Assembly: GCF_003704095.1 (NCBI RefSeq)
Contig: NW_020847002.1
Location: 62,001-126,000 of the forward strand
Reading direction: 5' to 3'
Length of the DNA stretch: 64,000 bases
Origin: Pocillopora damicornis
Lineage: Eukaryota
The first letter of the stretch is position 1, and each line of letters begins with the position of its first letter. Under the pieces are notes generated by a model. The model had not been told where the DNA came from and made no database searches. It worked only from the letters and a program-made list of their open reading frames with translations. The translations under genes were made by a program, and so were the position numbers. Positions 34,752-46,560 of this stretch are shown here, in pieces.

Positions 34752-36290
34752 TTATGCTGGACAATTAACCCCACTCAATTTTGCAACAAGAACTTTCCTT
34801 AATGTAGTTGTAAGCTGTTCTAGTTCTTGCACCTGCTTGCGCAGTTCTGCATTACTTTTCTCAAGTTCCTCCTCTTGTTGGAACAGATCTTGTTCTTTCT
34901 GCCTTCTAGCAGCACGAGCATGTTTTGAAGCAATGTTATTCTTTAATCTTCTCACTGTTTGTTTGTCAAGAGTACTGGAAATGCTCATAACTTCATCATA
35001 ATCACTCTCCTTGTCTAAATTCTCATATTTTACTTTCTTAGATGGTGATTTACAAACATCAGCAGAATTAACTCTCTTTCTTTTCTGATTAGATTGAACA
35101 TGAGCACTGCTTTCTTGACTAACTGTACACACACCACCTTCACTTGGCAAACTAACATTGTGTGCATGTCCAAGATCATCAGAAAGAGAAAAAATGTCAG
35201 CAATTTCAGCAATGTCCACAGTCACAGTTGAAATATTTTCAGAGCTACTGGCCACATTCTCAACCGACATTGGAGAAGCTACAGGCACAATGCTAACAGA
35301 AGACTGTAACAGCTCTTGAGTGAGAAGAGTCAGTGCATCTGATGTTTGGATGACTGTGATTTCTTCTGCGGCTGTATCAGCCATTTTTTCTCCATTAGAA
35401 TCAGAGGTAAGTTGATGAGTACATGATAGAAGACTTTTGCAATCCTCTTCCAGAGACACAACATCTACTACACTCTCAGGGGAGAGTGCCATGTCAGTCA
35501 AGTCTCCAGCAGATGAGAAGACCTCAGAATCACTACCTAGTGAGACAGCATCAATTGCATCACTACCAGGGGAAGCCACATCTGAGTACTCAGTAGTTCC
35601 AGCAGTCTCCATCCTCACTACATCTGACTGGCAGATGTCTGAAGTGGAGACTGGCAATGTATGCTCCACTCCAAACCCTAGATCCATTGTATCAAGATGT
35701 GGGAGATCTGGAAACAGGTCGTCGATATCAAGGTATTGCTCGAAGAAAGGATTGCCCATACCGCCTGGTGACTCACAAAAGTCCAATAAACTTTCCATTG
35801 GATGTTTTGCTGTTTCTGATGGTTTGGCGTTCAACTCATCAAGGAGCTCGAGGGCGATGAACTCGTTATCTTCAGCATCAACCTGATGTAAGCTTCCAGT
35901 GTCCTCCAATGTTTCCAATTTATCTAGAAACGAAAACAGAAAACATTAAGAATTGTTTGACACGAATGAGATAGTAAATTAACTTTACAGTTGCGATTAG
36001 GTTTTGCTTTCAAGAGGAGTTACGACATGACTGATGGACAGAGGTATACCGGCAACAAAGAAATTTACAGCTAAACTTCAATACTTTGTCTTTGTTCGAG
36101 ACTTTTCACAAGAAATCACTGCCTTTCAAAATAAACCTGTTCAAACCTTACCATTTTGTAGGTCATCAAACAGGCCGCATAAATTCCGAGTCCAGGGTTT
36201 GTTTCCATTGTTTTCGTGTGTTTCCATTTTCGTTTCCTTCTCGCCGATGTATCGATTTTTTTCCTCTACTTCGATCGAGCCGCTTTCCAT
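34752..36290 (-). CDS. bZIP transcription factor (PAR/C-EBP-like basic region), 2 coding exons, ~436 aa
   Basis: Exon 1 36290-36152 (MESGSIE...QN G|gtaagg) joins exon 2 35923-34752 (tttctag|AT AAA TTG) in frame. Long acidic/Ser-rich N-terminus; NLS-like QKRKR and SKKVK; basic region RRLKNNIASKHARAARR followed by a heptad leucine zipper. Confidence 0.88.
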
Positions 36291-36369
36291 GCGGTCGATT
36301 TTTTCGAGGTAAGGATCCTTCGGAATGTACCATGACGAAGATTTCTGCGACAGCGAACTTACTAAGCAT
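36166..36369 (-). promoter_or_regulatory. Overlapping out-of-frame upstream ORF (67 aa) of the bZIP gene
   Basis: ATG at 36369 (acaATGc) and an in-frame ATG at 36333 (gtcATGg); stop TGA at 36168-36166. Covers both main-frame ATGs (36290, 36227). Confidence 0.65.
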
Positions 36370-36601
36370 TGTGAACTTTTCAATGTAGATAGGTTAACCG
36401 TCGAAACTGCCGTTGTGTGGCTTAAGCCTGAACTTTGTAGAGAATGTTTTCGAGCGCCGACTCGTCTAAAAGCGGCGCCAACGCTGTCGATCTAACGCAG
36501 ACCAAACCCAACGAAGACGTAAAATTTCCTCGACGTACCTCACGAGGAAAAACAAAATTGAAGATAAATTTGTGAAGTTGTTGCACTCTTTATCCAGATG
36601 G

Positions 36602-36697
36602 TGGTGCAATAGTTGTGCTATAATTCTTCACTTACGTCAACATGAACCAATCACAGGCCGCGTAAGTTTAGTTTGTGATGTCATTTTTGACCAATCA
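36602..36697 (-). promoter_or_regulatory. bZIP gene proximal promoter: CARE-like site plus two CRE-like/CCAAT composite units
   Basis: On the + strand: TGGTGCAAT 36602-10; TTACGTCA-N7-CCAATCA 36632-53; TGATGTCA-N7-CCAATCA 36676-97. Confidence 0.6.
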
Positions 36698-37269
36698 TGT
36701 GTTGATTTTATCAACAATGAAAACCAAATAAATTATTTATTTTATTCGACTCGGCCGTTCAAGCCGTTTGTACTCGTCCAAACAGAAGGTGAATAGACCA
36801 ATATTTACGCCACAGATTCAAGAGGAAGGATAATTCAAGAAATGCAACTAATGTTCATTTTAGTCATTGTTATGAAGTGAGTCTTCAGATGTTTCTTCGC
36901 TTTGCGAACAATCAGGCCTTTTTGAAACTTGTGCATTAGAAATTAATCTAAAATAGGAATTTGTTTGGTTACCTGATTTTCTTCTTTTTTTTCTTTATTT
37001 TATTTATTTATTTGGTCTTTGCATGGCGAAAATAAATTTTGTTGAGAAAACCTTTCGTAATGGTGCAACTTTCTATACTCTTTGGACCAAGAGCAATGTG
37101 ACGTGAAGGATACGATAACTCACTTATAATTTGTTGTCGAAGTGTGTTTCGCTGTAATTTTTTGTTCCTTAAGTTTAAAAATGGTTGAGTCTTACGAATT
37201 TGAAGGTGAGTTTATAACTGGGCTGATTTTGTAGAAATGTGTGGGAAAAAGCTCTGGGTGCTTAGGATC

Positions 37270-38022: not shown

Positions 38023-40689
38023 CTAAGTAATTCCCTCTCCATTGCGTGATTGGGATGGTAATGATTGCCTAAAGGTGTAGTCTGACACCTGGCATCTGAC
38101 AGCTGCCGTCGTGTTTTGTTCCGGATGAACCAGAATCACATACAACTTAGGAGCGAACATACATCCCAACAAGCCATACGAGCTCACAAGTGTAGTTACA
38201 CAAGTCACGATGGTTACACTTTGGTTTTCTAGGCCTGCAAAGTCCACTGGGAAGTAAGCTATGGTGGAAAGAAGGAGAATATAAATTGCAAAACCGATAT
38301 ACCTCGCTTCGTTGAAGTTTTCAGGTAACTTTCTCACTTTGAAAGCATGAATGGTGCAGATAGCAGATATCAAAACGAGGTAGCCGTTGATTGCCATATG
38401 CAAGCTGAAGCCCAAAGAAGAACTGTGTGGGCGACAAGTCAGAAAAATGTACTCGCCTCGTTGTATAACTCGTGTCATAAAGGGAGCGTCCAGAAAAAGC
38501 CAAAAAGTCAACAGAAAAAATACAACCGAGTTCAACAAAAAAACCAAGGTGGCTTGAACTTTTATCGTCAGAATGTACTGCTTCATTCGTTTGCCGATGA
38601 AATCATCACGGAAAGCACTTAGAATACGAAGAGTTTTAATCATGAGTGTCGCAACACACGTACCGAGCGCACTGTAGTTCAAGCAGTAAGCTAAACGGCA
38701 AGTTAGAGTAGTAGGTTGCATGATACTTAGGAACGTTTGAGCGAAGAACATGGTGATGGACAACAATAAGATTGCGCTTAGTTCACGGCTTGAAGCTTTC
38801 ACGAGCGGTGTCTCTCGATGTCTCATTAGAACAAGGGACGAAAATATCGTAATTAGCACACCGAAAACTATAAAACCAGTGACTAGGTAACCCGTAGTGT
38901 CTGTCAGTTGGATGTTAACTATCGGTAGATCTTCGCATTCTGTACGATTTTCATTTGACCTCTGACCCGCAGGACATTCTGTGCAATTTCTAGACCCAGA
39001 GTCTCGATTAACAGAGCCCAGAGGGCATCTTGCACATTCCCAGCAGCATGCAGTTGTAACAGACTGCACAGTGCCTGGAGGACATATCACGGAACAAGCT
39101 GATGTGGGTGGAACACTCGCATTTGAAGACTTCCTACTCCATTTGATCTTATCGACTTCAAGCTGAAGTCTTACTCTGGAACTCCTATTCCAAGATCCGA
39201 TGATTTGTTTGACATTTTGTGTAACCCCTCCCTCTTCGTGTCTATGAAAGTTAATAACTCCATAGGATGAGGTCACGGGGTCCCCTGACTCATCAAATAG
39301 AAATTTTCCCATAATGCCATCAAAAGAAACGTTTCTCAGGTACTGATCAACATCCAGCGGCCTCACTGATGGATAAATTTGAGGACATCTCCCCTCTGGG
39401 AGTAGACCATGAGGTTCCCTGCATAAATACATCATGTGGAGAGCATGCGCAACCGCATAAACTGCCTCGATTACATAAGGTAGAAAAGTGTCGTAGAGCT
39501 TTTGAACTACATTTTGAGTCAGAGTCGCATTCTCTCCACACGCACGGAGTACAAGCGATTTTTTTATGGAGCAATTGAACTCTTTCGTCCAAACTTTTTC
39601 CCACCATTGAGACGTACGTTTCTTAATCATGTCCTTCGGAGTAATTGTTGCCAAATAAGATTTGAATTCTTCATTGTGATGATAAAATGGCTGAATGCCC
39701 AAGGCCCCATCCAGGACACTGAATAGTGATTGAATGTGGTTTGGTTGTTCTGATGCGAGGGCGTCACTTAAAATCCAGGTGCGATCGAGTAAATTCTGGT
39801 TCTCCACTTCGTGAATGAAAGTTCGTCCATAGCCACCAAACAACCAAAGAACAACCACTCTGACATTTGAGCGCCTCTTCAGTTTGCTGACTATGACTTT
39901 AATTTTGTTCATGTAGTTTAAACGAGGAATGTATTCTGAGAGAGCTAAGCAAAATGACTTCCTTATGAAGGACTCCTTTTCAAGTGCCCACACTCCATAT
40001 CTGCCATACGAATCATCAACAGCTACTGTGGCAATGTAACTCCAATCAAAGTATTCAAACAGATCCGCCATTGCACTTGCCTGCTGCTTGTCCGATGGTA
40101 CTGTTCTATAAAAGTTTTTGTAGAACGGCGAGCTTAGTTCTTCACTCGTAGCAGCATAACTGACAGCTGGTATACCGGCGACTTTAAGCAAGCTTCCAAC
40201 TAGGACGGAGCTGCCGGAGTCAGCTGGCCCAATCAGAGAAACAATTGGACTCGAAGAATGCGTCGCTGTTTTATTCCTTGCAAGTGCCCTGATGGCTTCC
40301 TGTGAGCATGCGTAGTGTGAGTCGCTACCTTTGACAAACTGATAAGTGGATTTCATTGCAAGCGCAGCACTCTCACAGTAGTCATGTATGTCATAGCCCA
40401 GTGTTATGTTTGGAAGCAAACTCGAGTCGTTGTTTATCTTTTCTATGGCGAATATCATTGCCTGAGCGTGACCTAATCCAGGGGCATTAAAATTACCGCA
40501 GTCCTCATTGTCAGTGCCTTTGTAATGAAGGAAAAACAAGCCACCAAGGGTTACGTTGCTAGTTTCGAAACCTGGTATGCTTGTGCTAGTAATGTGTTGC
40601 AACTGTTCCGAAATTGAATGGGATAAAGACAATAAGATACAGCTAAGTAAAAAAAGTGACGATATCATTTTCTCCAAATGGCAATCCAT
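38023..40689 (-). CDS. Class C GPCR, extracellular calcium-sensing/amino-acid receptor-like, 888 aa, intronless CDS
   Basis: Signal peptide; Venus flytrap domain (LGGLF, AMIFAIEKIN, LLPNITLGY, SYAATSEELS, RTVPSD); nine-Cys domain (CCWECARC); 7TM with TPLVKAS, KLPENFNEARYI, FAPKLYVIL. Confidence 0.95.
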   Translation of the reverse strand: MDCHLEKMISSLFLLSCILLSLSHSISEQLQHITSTSIPGFETSNVTLGGLFFLHYKGTDNEDCGNFNAPGLGHAQAMIFAIEKINNDSSLLPNITLGYDIHDYCESAALAMKSTYQFVKGSDSHYACSQEAIRALARNKTATHSSSPIVSLIGPADSGSSVLVGSLLKVAGIPAVSYAATSEELSSPFYKNFYRTVPSDKQQASAMADLFEYFDWSYIATVAVDDSYGRYGVWALEKESFIRKSFCLALSEYIPRLNYMNKIKVIVSKLKRRSNVRVVVLWLFGGYGRTFIHEVENQNLLDRTWILSDALASEQPNHIQSLFSVLDGALGIQPFYHHNEEFKSYLATITPKDMIKKRTSQWWEKVWTKEFNCSIKKSLVLRACGENATLTQNVVQKLYDTFLPYVIEAVYAVAHALHMMYLCREPHGLLPEGRCPQIYPSVRPLDVDQYLRNVSFDGIMGKFLFDESGDPVTSSYGVINFHRHEEGGVTQNVKQIIGSWNRSSRVRLQLEVDKIKWSRKSSNASVPPTSACSVICPPGTVQSVTTACCWECARCPLGSVNRDSGSRNCTECPAGQRSNENRTECEDLPIVNIQLTDTTGYLVTGFIVFGVLITIFSSLVLMRHRETPLVKASSRELSAILLLSITMFFAQTFLSIMQPTTLTCRLAYCLNYSALGTCVATLMIKTLRILSAFRDDFIGKRMKQYILTIKVQATLVFLLNSVVFFLLTFWLFLDAPFMTRVIQRGEYIFLTCRPHSSSLGFSLHMAINGYLVLISAICTIHAFKVRKLPENFNEARYIGFAIYILLLSTIAYFPVDFAGLENQSVTIVTCVTTLVSSYGLLGCMFAPKLYVILVHPEQNTTAAVRCQVSDYTFRQSLPSQSRNGEGIT

Positions 40690-43600
40690 GGATAACTATC
40701 TCTGGCAGGAATTGGGTAAATAGAGCATCTTATCTCTATAGGTTAACACGTTTTGGACATCTTCAAAGATCTTCAAAACAGATGCCTGCAAAGAAATTAA
40801 GTTGAGCGCGTGAGATGAAAAGAAATGAGTAGACGAATTTTTACGCATAGCACCCCTTACCATAAATTTACAGTTCATGAATTCATGGAGTAAACGGTTT
40901 TAGGATGGTAATGAAGGTGAAAATCAACACGAATCACTGACTTTATAAATTGCCAACATTCTCGACGTTGTCTACAGTGTTGAGAGTTTGAAGTTCATGT
41001 AAGAGCGAAGACGTGTAACCACAATTACATATATATTTTGGTAGAAAAAAGCTTTAAAGATGTTATGAGAACATGTTAACTGTAATGCAAACAACTTTAT
41101 GTCTTATAAAAAGGGATTATTTGGGTCCATAAGTCAGTTGTGCTGGCTCAAGCAAGGAAGCATTGTTTCTCCGGCTCTCATTTATTTTTGCTAATGGCTT
41201 AGGTCCTTCTGAGCAAAAAGTTTATTTGCTTATTCGCCCGAACTTCTGACTGAATGCATCAAGGTCCACCTTAATTTATATTTTTTTGTGACCATTCTTA
41301 TCAAACTTTCCGGTTTTAAGCAAAGTACTTTTATAATGTGACAAGCGACAATAATGTGACAATAAAGCTTGCATGGACCCAAAGTTAATCAAACTACGGA
41401 GGGAATAAGGTCAGCGCGATTATTGACTCAGTTACGACACATTTAGTAAATCTCAGGGCGAAAAGATGAACTAAATGATTTGCAGAAGATATTTAGAGAT
41501 AACACCCGAAACCTTTTCGTTGAGTGTCCCGGCCGTATGCGAGCTGTTCTAGACATAAGCTTCAATTTACGTTTTTGAAAAAGGCTTAAACGACTGTGAA
41601 TTTAGTGAAGATGCATCCCCGCCAACTTTTCGGCTCAGCTCAAAGCAAAGGTGTAATATTTCCTCATTTGATTACACTGAAAAGAAAGGGATTCTGCTTC
41701 GTGCGTAGTTGAAAGAACAGCAATGAATACAGTTCTTGGCACGATCGACGTAACGGAACCGAGGTAGACAGCAAACAGAGAAGAAATTAACAAAACTCAT
41801 GCATTCATGACGATTGAAAGTTCAATATGATGAGATTTTTCTGGCCGGTAAAAAAAGCACTTACAACTCCATAACGTCTCCATTCGATTTCTTTTTCTTT
41901 GAGCTGATATGCCTAAGAACACGTATTTTCAATGATGTTTACTGAGCGAGAATGCTCTATAACTGAATGCAAAAGGGTAGAAGTAAAAATTTGCTCGACT
42001 TTATAAATTGTCTCGAAATTAAACAAACTTTACCTCGAAATGTAGTCCTTTTCAACGTTATATTTAGGTATAGGACATGTTGTCGTCTTAATAAAGAGAG
42101 GAAAAAAAGGATGTAATGACTAATCGGTTACGTACCGACCACAACCTTCTGTTACGAGCAGAAATCTCTCACTGAGCCACGCACAATGTAGTAAAACGTT
42201 GAGTCATCTGCACCTTACCTCTGCTTGTGTCTTGTCTCCAGTTTTTCAGTTTACCATCGCCCTGGCTTACGGCTTGTTGTTATTTTCAGTTTTTTTCTAA
42301 GAATAATTAAAAAAGTTTCGCACCTCAAACAAAATTAATTTGAGGGCAGAAACACTCATGAAAAGATTTCGCACGTTCTCCTGATAATTGTTTGACCATA
42401 AGGGTCCATAAGGTGTTAGATCACGAAAAAAATTAAAACAGAGTATGATTTCAAAGCAGATTATTATCATTCCAAAATTATATCTTTAAGTACCTTTTTT
42501 TTGACGTGGAGCTTCTATTGATAAAACTGTCATCATTAAATTGATTTAGACACTAACTGTCAACATTAATTCCAGAAAACTCAATTTAGGCCTGTATTTT
42601 AACGTTCATGATTAAGATAAGAGAAAAGCCATTAACGTAAACAAAAGCATCGCGAATTGCTTTTGTTAGTTTTCTTTGTAATTATTCAACGAAAGAATCA
42701 ATATCAAACAGTAACCTAAAAAAATCAATTTCCTGTTCGTGGACGGATCTAACTCAGAATCCACGTTAGACCTGAACTTCTGGACAATTGTATTTTACAA
42801 TCCTTTCTGTATCAGACGAATGGTACTGAACAATGACGACAATTTCATCAGTTCTTTGTAGTGGCGTCCAAAATCCACGAGCATGAAAATAAAAACACAA
42901 AAATATAATGTTGCAAGGAAGAACCAACCATCAAGCACCAAAATTGAAAATTGATTCGTCAATCTGATGCTTTTACTTTTTCCTTGAGGCCTGGTAGAAA
43001 GGTTGATAGCACCCGCTCAAGGAGAGTCGAATGAAGATTGTAGGAATGAAGATATTATAATTGGAAAATGACAGCGGTAGTTTCAGTGAAAGACCAGTGA
43101 AACGAAAATGAATTACATTGTATTTATTTAAAGGCGCGCAGCTCTTTCGTATCGAAACATTTGGATGCTAGTTACAGCAGTGAATCCAGGCTCTATAACA
43201 AAGTGCGGTGCCGTGTCGGTGGGGGTGATACAAGATAAATTGGTTTTATCCCCTGAGTCGATAGATGCAAATTGGCCTGCATAAGGAGTTTCTGAAACTG
43301 AGGTTTCGAAGGATAGCGCGCGAAAGGTAAATAAAGAAAATAACCTCGTTTTGAGGTTTGTAGAAACACGTTATGAAATGGACACTGATACATATTTTTT
43401 TAATTTGTGTGTGTCCTGGTACACGATATTTTCCTATAAATTGTTACAGAATTGTCATGATAAAATACTTTTTTTTGTATGTTATTGTGTTTACGTATAG
43501 ATTATTCAGACATAGATCATTTGAGGCGCAGGGGTTTGATCAGACAGACGGTAGAAAATTTTTGAGCATACATGTGTTGCTAGTCACTTCAGATAACTGT

Positions 43601-44309: not shown

Positions 44310-46560
44310 TCATGCCATCAAGGAACCATGAACAATCGGTGCTGTCGAGTTGCTGGTTAGCATCTTCTTGAGAACGTCTCCCATCGATGCTCCGCGCAAA
44401 ACATCGGCGAAAAACAGCTGTTCAATAACTGTGGGCTCAATTTTCCTCAGAGATGACAACATGAGCAATAGCTTGCCAAAGCGAGTGGGTTGACTGGAGT
44501 ATTGGGTTCTGATGTACTGCTCCAGAGAACTCTGGGAGGTATCTTGGAGGATCTCAATCTGCTGGGGCTGTGTAATTGGTGAACCGTCTAAGGAGACATT
44601 GGGTAAAAATTGCTTAATAAGCTCACGAGTCATAATGAGTGATTTGAGAAGAGAATCTTAAAACGGTTACTTAAATTGCCACACTAATACATGAGGTCTT
44701 TTTTCATCATAGTTCCACACTTCGTTATCCAGTAGAATCTTCGCTGCTGCCTACAGCAGTAAAAAAAAGGGCTCGTAAGAAGAGTTCCAATGGTGAGATG
44801 AGGAAACTTTCGTTTGTTGCTTAGTTATGTCAACGTTTTACATCAATGTACCCTAGGAATGCAATGCAATGTAGTCCAAGGAAACTATATCAACCAAATG
44901 AAGAAAAATTTAAACTTCCTCACCCGTTCTGAACAAGACGATGCACTTTATGTGAAAATGTTCTGTCAGATCCATTCCAAGCGAGCGGACTTTCTCCATC
45001 TGGTCCTGAAACAAGCGGGCATGCTCCATCCGCTTAAGGATATTCTCCATGGACACTTGCCTGGCCTGCATGTTCGCTGTGGCGTACAACTGCTGCATAT
45101 ACAGGTGAATTGGACTGCGGGCACTCTCTAGTACGTACAGGTCGCTCCACGCCATTTTAAGCAGCGTGATTTGATCGCTCTCTACCAGGTTATTAAATGT
45201 TGGCAGCTTTCGTGCCCAGTCCACCACAGAGAAGAGCACATGGGCGGCTAACTCATAAACGACTTCAGAAGTTCCCTGTGGTTGTGGGAACATTCCCATG
45301 TGAATATTCCCCGGATTGGACAGCGCAGGTTGAAGGAATGTAAATGGTAAAAGCCCTGGTGCGTAAAGCCCATTGGGATCTCCAAAATACGGGAAGGAGA
45401 AACCAGGAAAAGCGGGTAGCTTGGTTGTTTGTACTGCTGCACAAATGAACAAATTACATTTACTAATTTAGGGTTTGTATCTGGCTAAAAGAAATTCGTA
45501 ACCCATAAGAATTTGAGAGGTAAAATTTCTGTCGCTGATTCGTTTGTGGTAACTCGGGTGTTCTCATGAAGGTCACAAGCTGAGGGAAATTAAATTCAAG
45601 TAACAAGAGATCCTTCTAACAATTATCTGCCAATGACTACTATCTGATTGGTTGACAGGTTTTGATGACACGACGAAAATTGATCGGGTCAAAGCGAGGT
45701 CATGGTGCTGTTAAATGCTGTGGATCAAGAGGTTATTGTACAAAAAATTGAATCAGTTGTACTAATTGAAAGCAGTTCCCTTAAAATTATGCGATGGAAG
45801 AATTAATAAAATAAAAAAAATAAAATAGAATAAAAAAACTCATTTAATACTACCAAAAGAAAATCTATTTGTAACTATATTTGGACATTCAAGTGATTAT
45901 TGATGCAAACGAAACAAAACTGTTGATGATCCATGGAAATATGAATAGGCTGTTTTTGTTATTATTCTTTAACTTTTAAATTGAATACAAAAAGTTTGGA
46001 GTTCGATTCATTGTTTAAAAGAATAAACAGTTCAGAGATTTGAAATTTCACAAAAACCTTCGAGATTTTGTTTTGGGTTAGTATTAGTTAGTATGATAGT
46101 CAATTAGTAATTAACAATGGAAAGCTCCGTCAAACGTAAAGCAAAATCGGAAAAAAATGAAAGAAATTACAAACAGATTACAGATCTGAGAAACCAAGCA
46201 TCGAAAGCCTTTTTTTAAAACAAAGAATATTATGTTAAACACAAAGATTATGAATATGAATAACAAAAACATACGGTTACCTTCTTTCTTCATCCCAGTG
46301 CTGAGGCACTTTTGAAATCGGCAAGATGGACAGCGACTTCGATTGTCTCTATCCACTGTACAGTTGTTATTTCCACGGCAAGTGTATGATGTACTGTTTC
46401 GGACAGTGCGCTTGAAAAAACTTTTACAACCTTCGCATGTGCTGACTCCATAATGTTTCCCGGTCGACTTGTCTCCACAAACAGCGCAGTCCAGTTTATC
46501 TGCTTCTGTTTTTATTTTTGAAAGTTCTGTTATGGTGTTGGTGTCAGTACATGCGGTCAT
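44310..46560 (-). CDS. Nuclear receptor, NR2F/COUP-TF-like, 3 exons, ~356 aa
   Basis: Exons 46560-46281, 45436-44924, 44587-44310 join in frame (1071 nt). [17 protein letters not shown]...[10 protein letters not shown]...GMKKEAVQ with an NR2E/F-type P-box; [11 protein letters not shown]...[29 protein letters not shown]. Confidence 0.92.
45686..45702 (+). promoter_or_regulatory. DR5 nuclear-receptor response element in intron 1 of the NR gene
   Basis: GGGTCA-AAGCG-AGGTCA, two consensus RGGTCA half-sites; another AGGTCA at 45570-75 and CCAAT/ATTGG motifs at about 45630-45652. Confidence 0.5.

Follow-up and report, generated by a model that had tools for sequence, protein, structure and literature searches.

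A conserved stop site in an overlapping reading frame of a PAR-like bZIP gene from Pocillopora damicornis: a candidate +1 frameshift switch

Introduction

How a transcription factor is produced from a messenger whose first AUG leads away from it is the question raised by a gene on the minus strand of the DNA studied here, a stretch of 64,000 nucleotides (nt) from the coral Pocillopora damicornis (NCBI RefSeq assembly GCF_003704095.1, contig NW_020847002.1, positions 62,001 to 126,000), referred to below as the window. Sequence comparison identifies this gene as a PAR-like member of the basic leucine zipper (bZIP) group with Aplysia ApAF as a relative and with ZIP-2 of C. elegans and Xrp1 of the fly as probable ones. 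The first AUG of its messenger opens a 67-codon open reading frame (ORF1), which enters the coding sequence (CDS) out of frame. A preliminary description of this DNA had likened the arrangement to that of ATF4, where an overlapping upstream ORF (uORF) is bypassed when eIF2-alpha is phosphorylated, and proposed that the gene is an effector of the integrated stress response (ISR).

The comparisons reported here indicate that ORF1 very likely controls translation of the window gene. The evidence leans slightly towards a mechanism in which ribosomes slip by one base (+1) at the ORF1 stop (GUU-UGA-U), by which ORF1 would be fused to the bZIP frame, and for the family as a whole a +1 frameshift appears fairly probable.

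ORF1 and the transcript of the window gene

As read off the window sequence, ORF1 opens at ATG 36369 (acaATGc), 79 nt 5' of ATG 36290, and ends at a TGA stop at 36168-36166. It is in the -1 frame, overlaps the CDS by 125 nt and has both ATG 36290 and ATG 36227 inside its span, and a second upstream AUG (uAUG) at 36333 (gtcATGg) shares its frame. The coordinates and frames previously given for the uAUGs, the main AUGs, the overlap and a 3-codon ORF further upstream were all found correct on re-reading. The gene has two coding exons, and the 228-nt intron between them was joined in six of seven RNA runs, with loose ends in the seventh; the run evidence throughout consists of assembled contigs and not of raw reads. 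The 5' ends of the contigs were located at 36525, 36531, 36539, 36552, and 36582 in five of the seven RNA runs (two end in adapter), whereas the X9 contig stops at 36384 and that from X1 extends beyond 36900. Because of these contig ends, the leader includes uAUG 36369; it probably excludes the 3-codon ORF at 36643, as the preliminary description had supposed. The concern that transcription might start 3' of 36333 is set aside by the same contigs, which reach 36525-36582.

Overlap of this kind is in itself unremarkable, and the case rests upon conservation. In shuffled leaders, an overlapping out-of-frame ORF was present in 42%, and the overlap was at least 125 nt in 14%, which is the extent to which ORF1 could be regarded as a chance ORF or an assembly error in a homopolymer. 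This explanation is extremely improbable and, on the sequence comparisons, is refuted by conservation, as further cnidarians and also distantly related animals have the same ORF and stop. The A-runs at 36299-36304 and 36256-36262, which had been singled out for such a check, contain no listed indel in the contigs of eight runs, and a single X3 contig from 36539 spans both A-runs and the splice junction, with exon 1 being free of gaps.

Under the 50-nt rule for junction-dependent decay, termination at the end of ORF1 should not trigger such decay of the window mRNA, because the intron is only 14 nt downstream; in nine loci that were spliced for comparison, the splice donor is 5-14 nt past the ORF1 stop. 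Folding of the leader was not unusual (z +0.61), Rfam gave no family and one chance snoRNA match, and for the ORF1 peptide no Pfam match and no Atlas match above 0.81 was obtained. Just before the uAUG, at 36371-36399, the runs X10-X13 carry a strongly divergent allele or haplotype with 10-14 changes, in which the length and the ATG are kept.

A fixed stop register at the end of ORF1

To place ORF1 in a wider context, 59 loci were gathered by the pattern of the bZIP basic region only, and they are designated cnidarian or bilaterian-type by their likeness to named proteins. These loci are related, many of them being close kin, and P-values derived from them are optimistic and overstate support. 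In five genomic loci no acceptor was present under the rule used and only the upstream part was taken. In 41 of the 59 loci an ORF in the -1 frame, which trails the main frame by one base, ends [T/C]GG-NNN-NTT-stop-[C/T]. Among the 18 others, 10 are truncated at their 5' end or close to it, seven are genomic-looking pieces whose exon 1 presumably lies beyond the contig, and the last is L096, which is considered below. In a search that made no use of the motif, NTT-stop ended 26 of 30 overlapping -1 ORFs, in comparison to 40 of 610 (6.6%) other -1-frame stops; of the four ORFs that end otherwise, three are on genomic pieces, two of which have the true site in exon 1. The presence of ORF1 in the spliced mRNA and the conservation of its stop register are matters of observation, and the out-of-frame overlap, which the preliminary description proposed to compare across anthozoans, is conserved in cnidarian orthologues.

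The beginning of ORF1 is also characteristic. In 23 of 26 mRNA-type contigs the first (5'-most) AUG is the one that opens ORF1, and nearly all listed ORF1 starts have a purine at -3, the exceptions including L039, L056, and L057. Of the start codons noted in the preliminary description, the second uAUG at 36333 and the main ATG 36290 are not conserved and lack the counterparts that AUG 36227 has in most stony corals.

Several other comparisons gave negative or limited results. The cnidarian and bilaterian ORF1 profiles matched over their last 17 columns only (probability 13%), a weak search of 7993 candidates revealed no protein in which ORF1 and the main frame are fused, and the 14-nt bilaterian consensus was not enriched in the genome of the window (22 matches versus 25 in the control). 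A Nematostella gene model, known as protein only, has N-G-Q-F-N at the matching place and would retain W-P-x-stop in the -1 frame.

Frame switch, stop context and hairpin in bilaterian-type loci

The mollusc/annelid-type relatives are the only loci in which conservation of the ORF1 peptide, a switch of frame, a C after the stop and a 3' hairpin were observed. ORF1 in the bilaterian-type loci is 53-89 amino acids (aa) long and its peptide is conserved (LDELVDLL ... F..EDxWP[IVLF]). In 26 less redundant loci of this type, ORF1 has ATT, GTT, TTT, or CTT as its final codon before a variable stop (TGA 15, TAA 10, TAG 1), and the following base is C in 25 of the 26, a base that is silent in both frames; for the mRNA loci the count is 20 of 21, versus 12.4 expected. 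Before the stop, isolated substitutions in 13 bilaterian-type pairs were synonymous in ORF1 in 78 of 114 cases and in the main frame in 14 of 114, whereas after the stop, in nine of these pairs, they were synonymous in the main frame in 65 of 116 cases and in ORF1 in 9 of 116. Readthrough of the ORF1 stop, which would fit the C after the stop and the hairpin, was considered and rejected, as the synonymous bias past the stop lies in the main frame and not in ORF1.

A hairpin that begins 7-11 nt past the stop and is among the highest-ranking 5% of CDS windows is present in 13 of 21 bilaterian-type loci, with differing sequences; some compensatory change was seen, 2 of 10 pairs being altered on both sides across seven gastropod-type loci. 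The main-frame AUGs before the site shift their position and are often by-products of ORF1 codons. In L056, L057, and L058 no main-frame AUG precedes the site, and the frame is open for 79, 70, and 14 codons, respectively, to its first AUG. In 6 of 23 bilaterian-type loci an ACG is found at -42 to -48, but it is in the ORF1 frame. Separately, the ORF1 frame of L040-L048, L062, L063, L069, and L074 is often open for 60-80 codons 5' of its AUG, in some cases with an in-frame ACG, and a non-AUG extension of ORF1 is possible there.

The joining of ORF1 to the main frame could alternatively be brought about by splicing, through an alternative intron or a cut of the IRE1 type. In the IRE1 (XBP1/HAC1) consensus, two CNGNNGN stem-loops flank a frame-shifting intron. 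Three gastropod-type hairpins do carry a 7-nt CNGNNGN loop, and in the Nucella model P0286 the main frame is preceded by, and joined to, an ORF1-like N-terminus (58% versus ORF1 of L046 over 26 aa), an arrangement found also in the Xrp1 models of other flies. However, the paired loops that are required were found in none of the 26 loci, gene models often invent introns to bridge frameshifts, and the RNA runs, whose stress status is not on record, show the canonical joint only. We consider splicing to be very improbable.

Coral and other cnidarian loci

In the cnidarian orthologues ORF1 is 73-80 aa long, and GTT-TGA-T is kept in all eight orthologous loci, the window included. An ACG in the main frame and in strong context is present exactly 44 nt before the uAUG in 6 of 6 cnidarian loci, in comparison to 0.12 expected, the interval for this count having been chosen post hoc. 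The frame from ACG 36413 is open to the end of the exon in the window, and in all seven loci shown no main-frame stop intervenes between the ACG and the stop site of ORF1. The main-frame AUG at 36227 is the point at which P0056 and P0057 start, and a Met is found there also in P0059, P0086, L080, L081, L084, and L086.

These observations are the basis for a reading, distinctly less probable than not, in which corals use no frameshift and ORF1 encodes an inhibitory, slowly terminating peptide (W/R-P-x-stop) behind which ribosomes would queue, and the main frame would be started at the ACG or at AUG 36227. Queuing is described as allowing non-AUG starts to resist elongation inhibitors (PMC6601509), the divergent alleles at 36371-36399 in Pocillopora-like runs preserve length, and the corals have neither the hairpin nor the frame bias. 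This reading is opposed by the bilaterian-type loci, where main-frame stops occur inside ORF1, where the ACG is not in the main frame and where the molluscan-type hairpin would be left without explanation, and also by the paralogue L038, exon 1 of which is devoid of main-frame AUGs and which lacks such an ACG. The ACG or AUG route and the frameshift route can coexist. In corals the main-frame ACG would give a second route, queuing behind a slowed ORF1 could favor it, and the window gene might use the ACG start in addition to the frameshift or in its place.

L038 (G000:C315; 5580-5764 + 6756-7445) is a second PAR-L gene in the coral genome of the window, with a 59-codon ORF1 that ends CGT CTT TGA C and a splice donor 5 nt past the stop. 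Its first main-frame AUG occurs only 71 codons on. It is a cleaner test case for frameshifting than the window gene. A FFDQ-like motif before this AUG aligned only weakly with the family motif NPFFEQ (E 0.02, probability 2%). In another cnidarian locus the 5' end of the mRNA contig (L086:1-130), which we take to resemble 16S rRNA, looks chimeric and an upstream AUG there is likely an artefact.

Identity of the gene and its family

The window protein matches the Pfam family bZIP_2 (E 6e-10) and its exon-2 part is 80% identical to Stylophora LOC111328017. The basic region (RRLKNNIASK) has the Asn-Asn pair that is seen in PAR and C/EBP proteins, and a profile search brought up named relatives from gastropods, a bivalve, a brachiopod, an annelid, and Nematostella, the last of which is auto-named DDIT3. 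No relatives were found in the viral and prokaryotic collections. In trees that were built on 72 bZIP columns, a 51-row group including ApAF had a support of 85/72; the target row had dropped out of this tree and Stylophora P0056 served as its stand-in. In the tree with the target, PAR and PAR-L were separated from the rest (95/83) and PAR-L was not resolved.

The trees thus place the window gene, with moderate support, on the PAR/PAR-L side and away from C/EBP and ATF4. This agrees with the earlier view that its basic region is not of the ATF4 type, and a true coral ATF4 is present elsewhere (G000:C1619). The phylogeny called for in the preliminary description favors the PAR/PAR-L side, but a clade of the target with ATF4 was not rejected by the approximately unbiased (AU) test (p 0.06). 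The fly PAR-L row FBpp0083114 is presumably Xrp1. In the supplement to the paper that defines the PAR-L subfamily (PMC4736632), the rows for Lottia and Nematostella match P0160 and the paralogue at G000:C315. This match, the common site and the common intron phase support PAR-L membership, as judged from sequence. Two observations on related proteins may be added. One coral protein, P0095, carries two tandem copies of this bZIP, and the family proteins P0115, P0119, P0121, P0122, P0127, P0140, P0176, and P0233 share a different N-terminal motif, VF(L/F)(T/P)G, which may mark a variant junction.

The proposed mechanism and the evidence bearing on it

According to the +1 frameshift reading, most ribosomes would initiate at the ORF1 AUG and terminate after 67 codons, by which the factor would be kept off. 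[quoted passage not shown] The fixed stop, the NUU codon, the 3' pyrimidine, the hairpin, the switch of frame and the unstable main start together match a +1 site of the antizyme type. That ApAF, ZIP-2, Xrp1 and the coral orthologues represent one ancient sensor of translation stress, with a single +1 site that predates the split of cnidarians and bilaterians, is a broader proposal for which we regard the evidence as evenly balanced.

A number of observations weigh against this reading. The locus L096 is a true exception, its overlapping ORF ending CAA-TAG, and 8 of 21 bilaterian-type loci are without a top-5% hairpin. The main frame is open for at least 30 codons upstream in 30 of 32 loci, versus 19.4 expected, which fits upstream initiation, and some upstream AUG is present in most loci. 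The difficulties are greatest for the corals. No 3' hairpin is seen (rank 0.97 in the window gene, 0.93-0.97 over four cnidarian orthologues and 0.69 in the paralogue), substitutions before the stop favor none of the frames (11, 8, and 10 of 37 are synonymous), and the base after the stop is U in cnidarian orthologues, in which U is in any case more common. Because the coral main frame is open for 100-118 codons upstream and holds both the ACG and an AUG, no shift is needed there. In addition, the Pro of ORF1 is altered in L086 and L093, where the main-frame G-L-F is retained, and exon 2 of other corals contains a further motif of this kind, GL(L/F)DEL; hence G-L-F-D may be a protein motif, forcing NTT-TRA once a stop is present. 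The monophyly of PAR-L is weak and is lost from resolution when the target is included. In worms, a stop at codon 15 of the main ORF (mORF) reduces zip-2 induction to 1-4%, an early stop in the overlapping ORF (oORF) still permits induction, and no fusion peptide was found (PMC11831180). Since the early oORF stop, among other mutants, leaves induction possible, the native zip-2 oORF stop is not the main route in worms.

The ATF4/CHOP-type explanation, in which phosphorylation of eIF2-alpha causes the uAUG to be skipped and translation to start at the main AUG, appears improbable. The anatomy fits it, AUG 36227 is in good context and has counterparts in most stony corals, the promoter contains a conserved C/EBP-ATF-like element (TATTGCACCAC), and one relative bears the name DDIT3. 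Xrp1 is, moreover, induced via PERK and eIF2-alpha (PMC8514241). Nevertheless, the window gene has no uORF1, with no AUG at all between 36642 and 36370. The conserved parts of the family are the stop site and the bilaterian-type peptide and not the main AUG, which is unstable or absent across the family. This explanation also has no need of a fixed stop register, a C at +4 or a hairpin. Poor context of the uAUG is a mark of leaky bypass of the CHOP/GADD34 type, and such bypass is disfavored because the ORF1 AUG mostly has a purine at -3. Lastly, the leader of Xrp1 alone is not inducible, and zip-2 is independent of GCN2, PERK and eIF2-alpha (PMC11831180). The link to the ISR made in the preliminary description may still apply, as Xrp1 is PERK-dependent, but zip-2 is not. 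By analogy with ZIP-2, stress on elongation or termination is more likely to be the trigger than phosphorylation of eIF2-alpha.

Promoter elements and other features of the window

The features of the gene are collected in Table 1. The consensus sequences of the C/EBP-ATF response element (CARE) and of the cAMP response element (CRE) served for comparison in the promoter. Both GATTGG boxes are aligned in 4 of 4 genomic cnidarian loci and TGACATCA in three of the four. The 3-codon ORF, which by the preliminary description would mimic uORF1 of ATF4, is instead part of the conserved promoter element TTGACGTAA: L080 and L081 retain this element but lose the ATG, which is absent also in L093. The element TATTGCACCAC is a possible site for ATF4, for C/EBP or for auto-regulation.

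Table 1. Features of the PAR-like bZIP gene in the window.
Feature	Positions	Strand	Remarks
Site of predicted +1 frameshifting or slow termination, CGG CCT GTT TGA T	36165..36177	-	Main frame G-L-F-D
ORF1, overlapping uORF	36166..36369	-	67 codons, -1 versus main frame; orthologous ORF1s in cnidarian and bilaterian-type loci
ACG in strong context (acaACGg), main frame, 44 nt 5' of uAUG	36411..36413	-	Predicted non-AUG start, 477-aa form
Main-frame AUG (cgcATGg), taken as the main start in the preliminary description	36288..36290	-	436-aa product; not conserved
Main-frame AUG (aaaATGg), possible leaky-scanning start	36225..36227	-	415 aa; counterparts in most stony corals
Intron, 228 nt, phase 1	35924..36151	-	14 nt 3' of ORF1 stop; RNA joints
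Exon 2 of main ORF: acidic region with NPFFEQYLD motif and C-terminal bZIP (34815-34970), PAR-like/ApAF type	34752..35923	-	Pfam bZIP_2
Approximate mRNA 5' end	36525..36582	-	Contig ends, lower bound; run X15 (unspliced, type not on record) continues
Conserved leader block ATCGACAGCGTTGGCGCCG	36473..36491	-	Identical in window, L080, L081, and L086; not in L093
TATTGCACCAC, one mismatch versus C/EBP-ATF response element	36601..36611	-	Identical in 4/4 genomic cnidarian loci
ATG-TTG-ACG-TAA = TTGACGTAA element, CRE/PAR-type	36632..36643	-	Probably 5' of transcript start; conservation and RNA ends
Two CCAAT boxes, GATTGG 36696-36691 and 36652-36647, with TGACATCA (36683-36676) between	36647..36696	-	Putative promoter

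Further 5' of the promoter, at 36750-37157, separate low-depth RNA contigs are present in X10, X11, and X13, which may represent an upstream transcript, the 3' end of a neighboring gene or DNA. By eye, an 890-codon open frame on the minus strand at 38023-40695 resembles a class C G protein-coupled receptor of the calcium-sensing/glutamate receptor type, and two exons on the same strand at 44310-45467 resemble a nuclear-receptor ligand-binding domain.

Significance

Few animal genes, to our knowledge, carry a conserved programmed frameshift. If the broader proposal of one ancient sensor is true, a family of transcription factors would join a very short list of cellular programmed frameshifts, the site absent from the work on zip-2 and Xrp1 would be named, and the Aplysia memory factor ApAF would be gated by recoding and would have been cloned without its true N-terminus. 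The available text of the zip-2 study reports that no junction or site was found (PMC11831180), and the text on Xrp1 leaves the role of the main ORF unexplained, while clear orthologues of Xrp1 are said to be absent beyond Diptera. A fixed and mutable site of 13 nt, together with the hairpin of molluscan-type loci and the in-frame ACG of corals, makes these zip-2, Xrp1 main-ORF and Xrp1-orthologue questions testable by point mutants. Invertebrate gene models would be corrected, and corals would gain a candidate switch for translation stress.

The family, the kind of mechanism and the worm case are already known, whereas the site shared between phyla, the hairpin and the ACG of corals appear to be new. 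Our literature search, which left most subscription journals outside it, brought up no description of the common site or of ORF1 in ApAF, PAR-L or coral genes, and bZIP and zip-2 are unmentioned in the first 300,000 characters of PMC5009743.

Comparison with known systems

The closest described case is zip-2 of C. elegans (Kniazeva and Ruvkun, 2025; PMC11831180), the orthology of which was judged by eye and not by tree. Like the window gene, it encodes a bZIP with an NNxAS basic region, has a -1 overlapping ORF that opens about 75 nt before the main AUG and has an intron after the oORF stop. The oORF ends CGG GAG CTT TGA (main frame G-S-F-E; read by eye from the supplement), which is the same register. 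It differs in that the overlap is 121 codons as against 41 and in having A after the stop. A +1 fusion without the mORF AUG was proposed from the genetics of zip-2; the shift could be anywhere in the overlap, and in the available text no site is named, the word "slippery" is absent, and conservation of the oORF is reported in Caenorhabditis only (PMC11831180).

Xrp1 (PMC8514241; PMC13268129) shares with this family an overlapping ORF, its uORF2, that encodes a conserved peptide, and induction of Xrp1 needs both the leader and the main ORF. Unlike the window gene, its uORF2 is 288 aa long, a uORF1 is present and induction is PERK-dependent. In other flies, annotation places the uORF2 peptide at the N-terminus of Xrp1, and "frameshift" is absent from the portions of the two Xrp1 texts that were searched. 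For ApAF (PMC2064337), Aplysia P0134 starts MISSIS and ends MAGTA like the ApAF cloning primers, and the sense primer reads D-I-Q-H-F in the -1 frame, which is an ORF1 motif of gastropod-type loci. The identity rests upon these primers, as the Ser175/Ser266 numbering of ApAF could not be mapped on P0134 (different species, 360 versus 342 aa). The start Met of cloned ApAF is not conserved, relatives having Q, L, V, T, or P at that position, and the protein that has been studied may thus lack its natural N-terminus. The examined text of PMC2064337 and PMC4736632 makes no mention of a uORF or of recoding.

In ATF4/ATF5 an out-of-frame ORF likewise covers the main-frame AUGs, but the window gene, unlike them, has no uORF1. 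The coral ATF4 (L037:6698-7270) has a uORF1 (MAV-stop) and an intron-split, 57-codon uORF2 that overlaps the CDS, with TTGCATCA upstream; its uORF2 ends TCT-TGA-A and is without the family site.

Ornithine decarboxylase antizyme (PMC1874602) shares with this family a short ORF1, a +1 shift at its stop (proposed in this family), AUU/GUU/UUU codons in the P site, C or U after the stop, conservation of the 5' context and a 3' structure that is restricted to some branches. In antizyme AUU, GUU, and UUU before UGA are natural shift sites, CUU-UGA is active in mammalian cells and C after the stop is a weak termination context (PMC1874602). This family differs from antizyme in encoding a transcription factor, in having no demonstrated link to polyamines and in its use of all three stops, and the corals in that main-frame starts are kept upstream.

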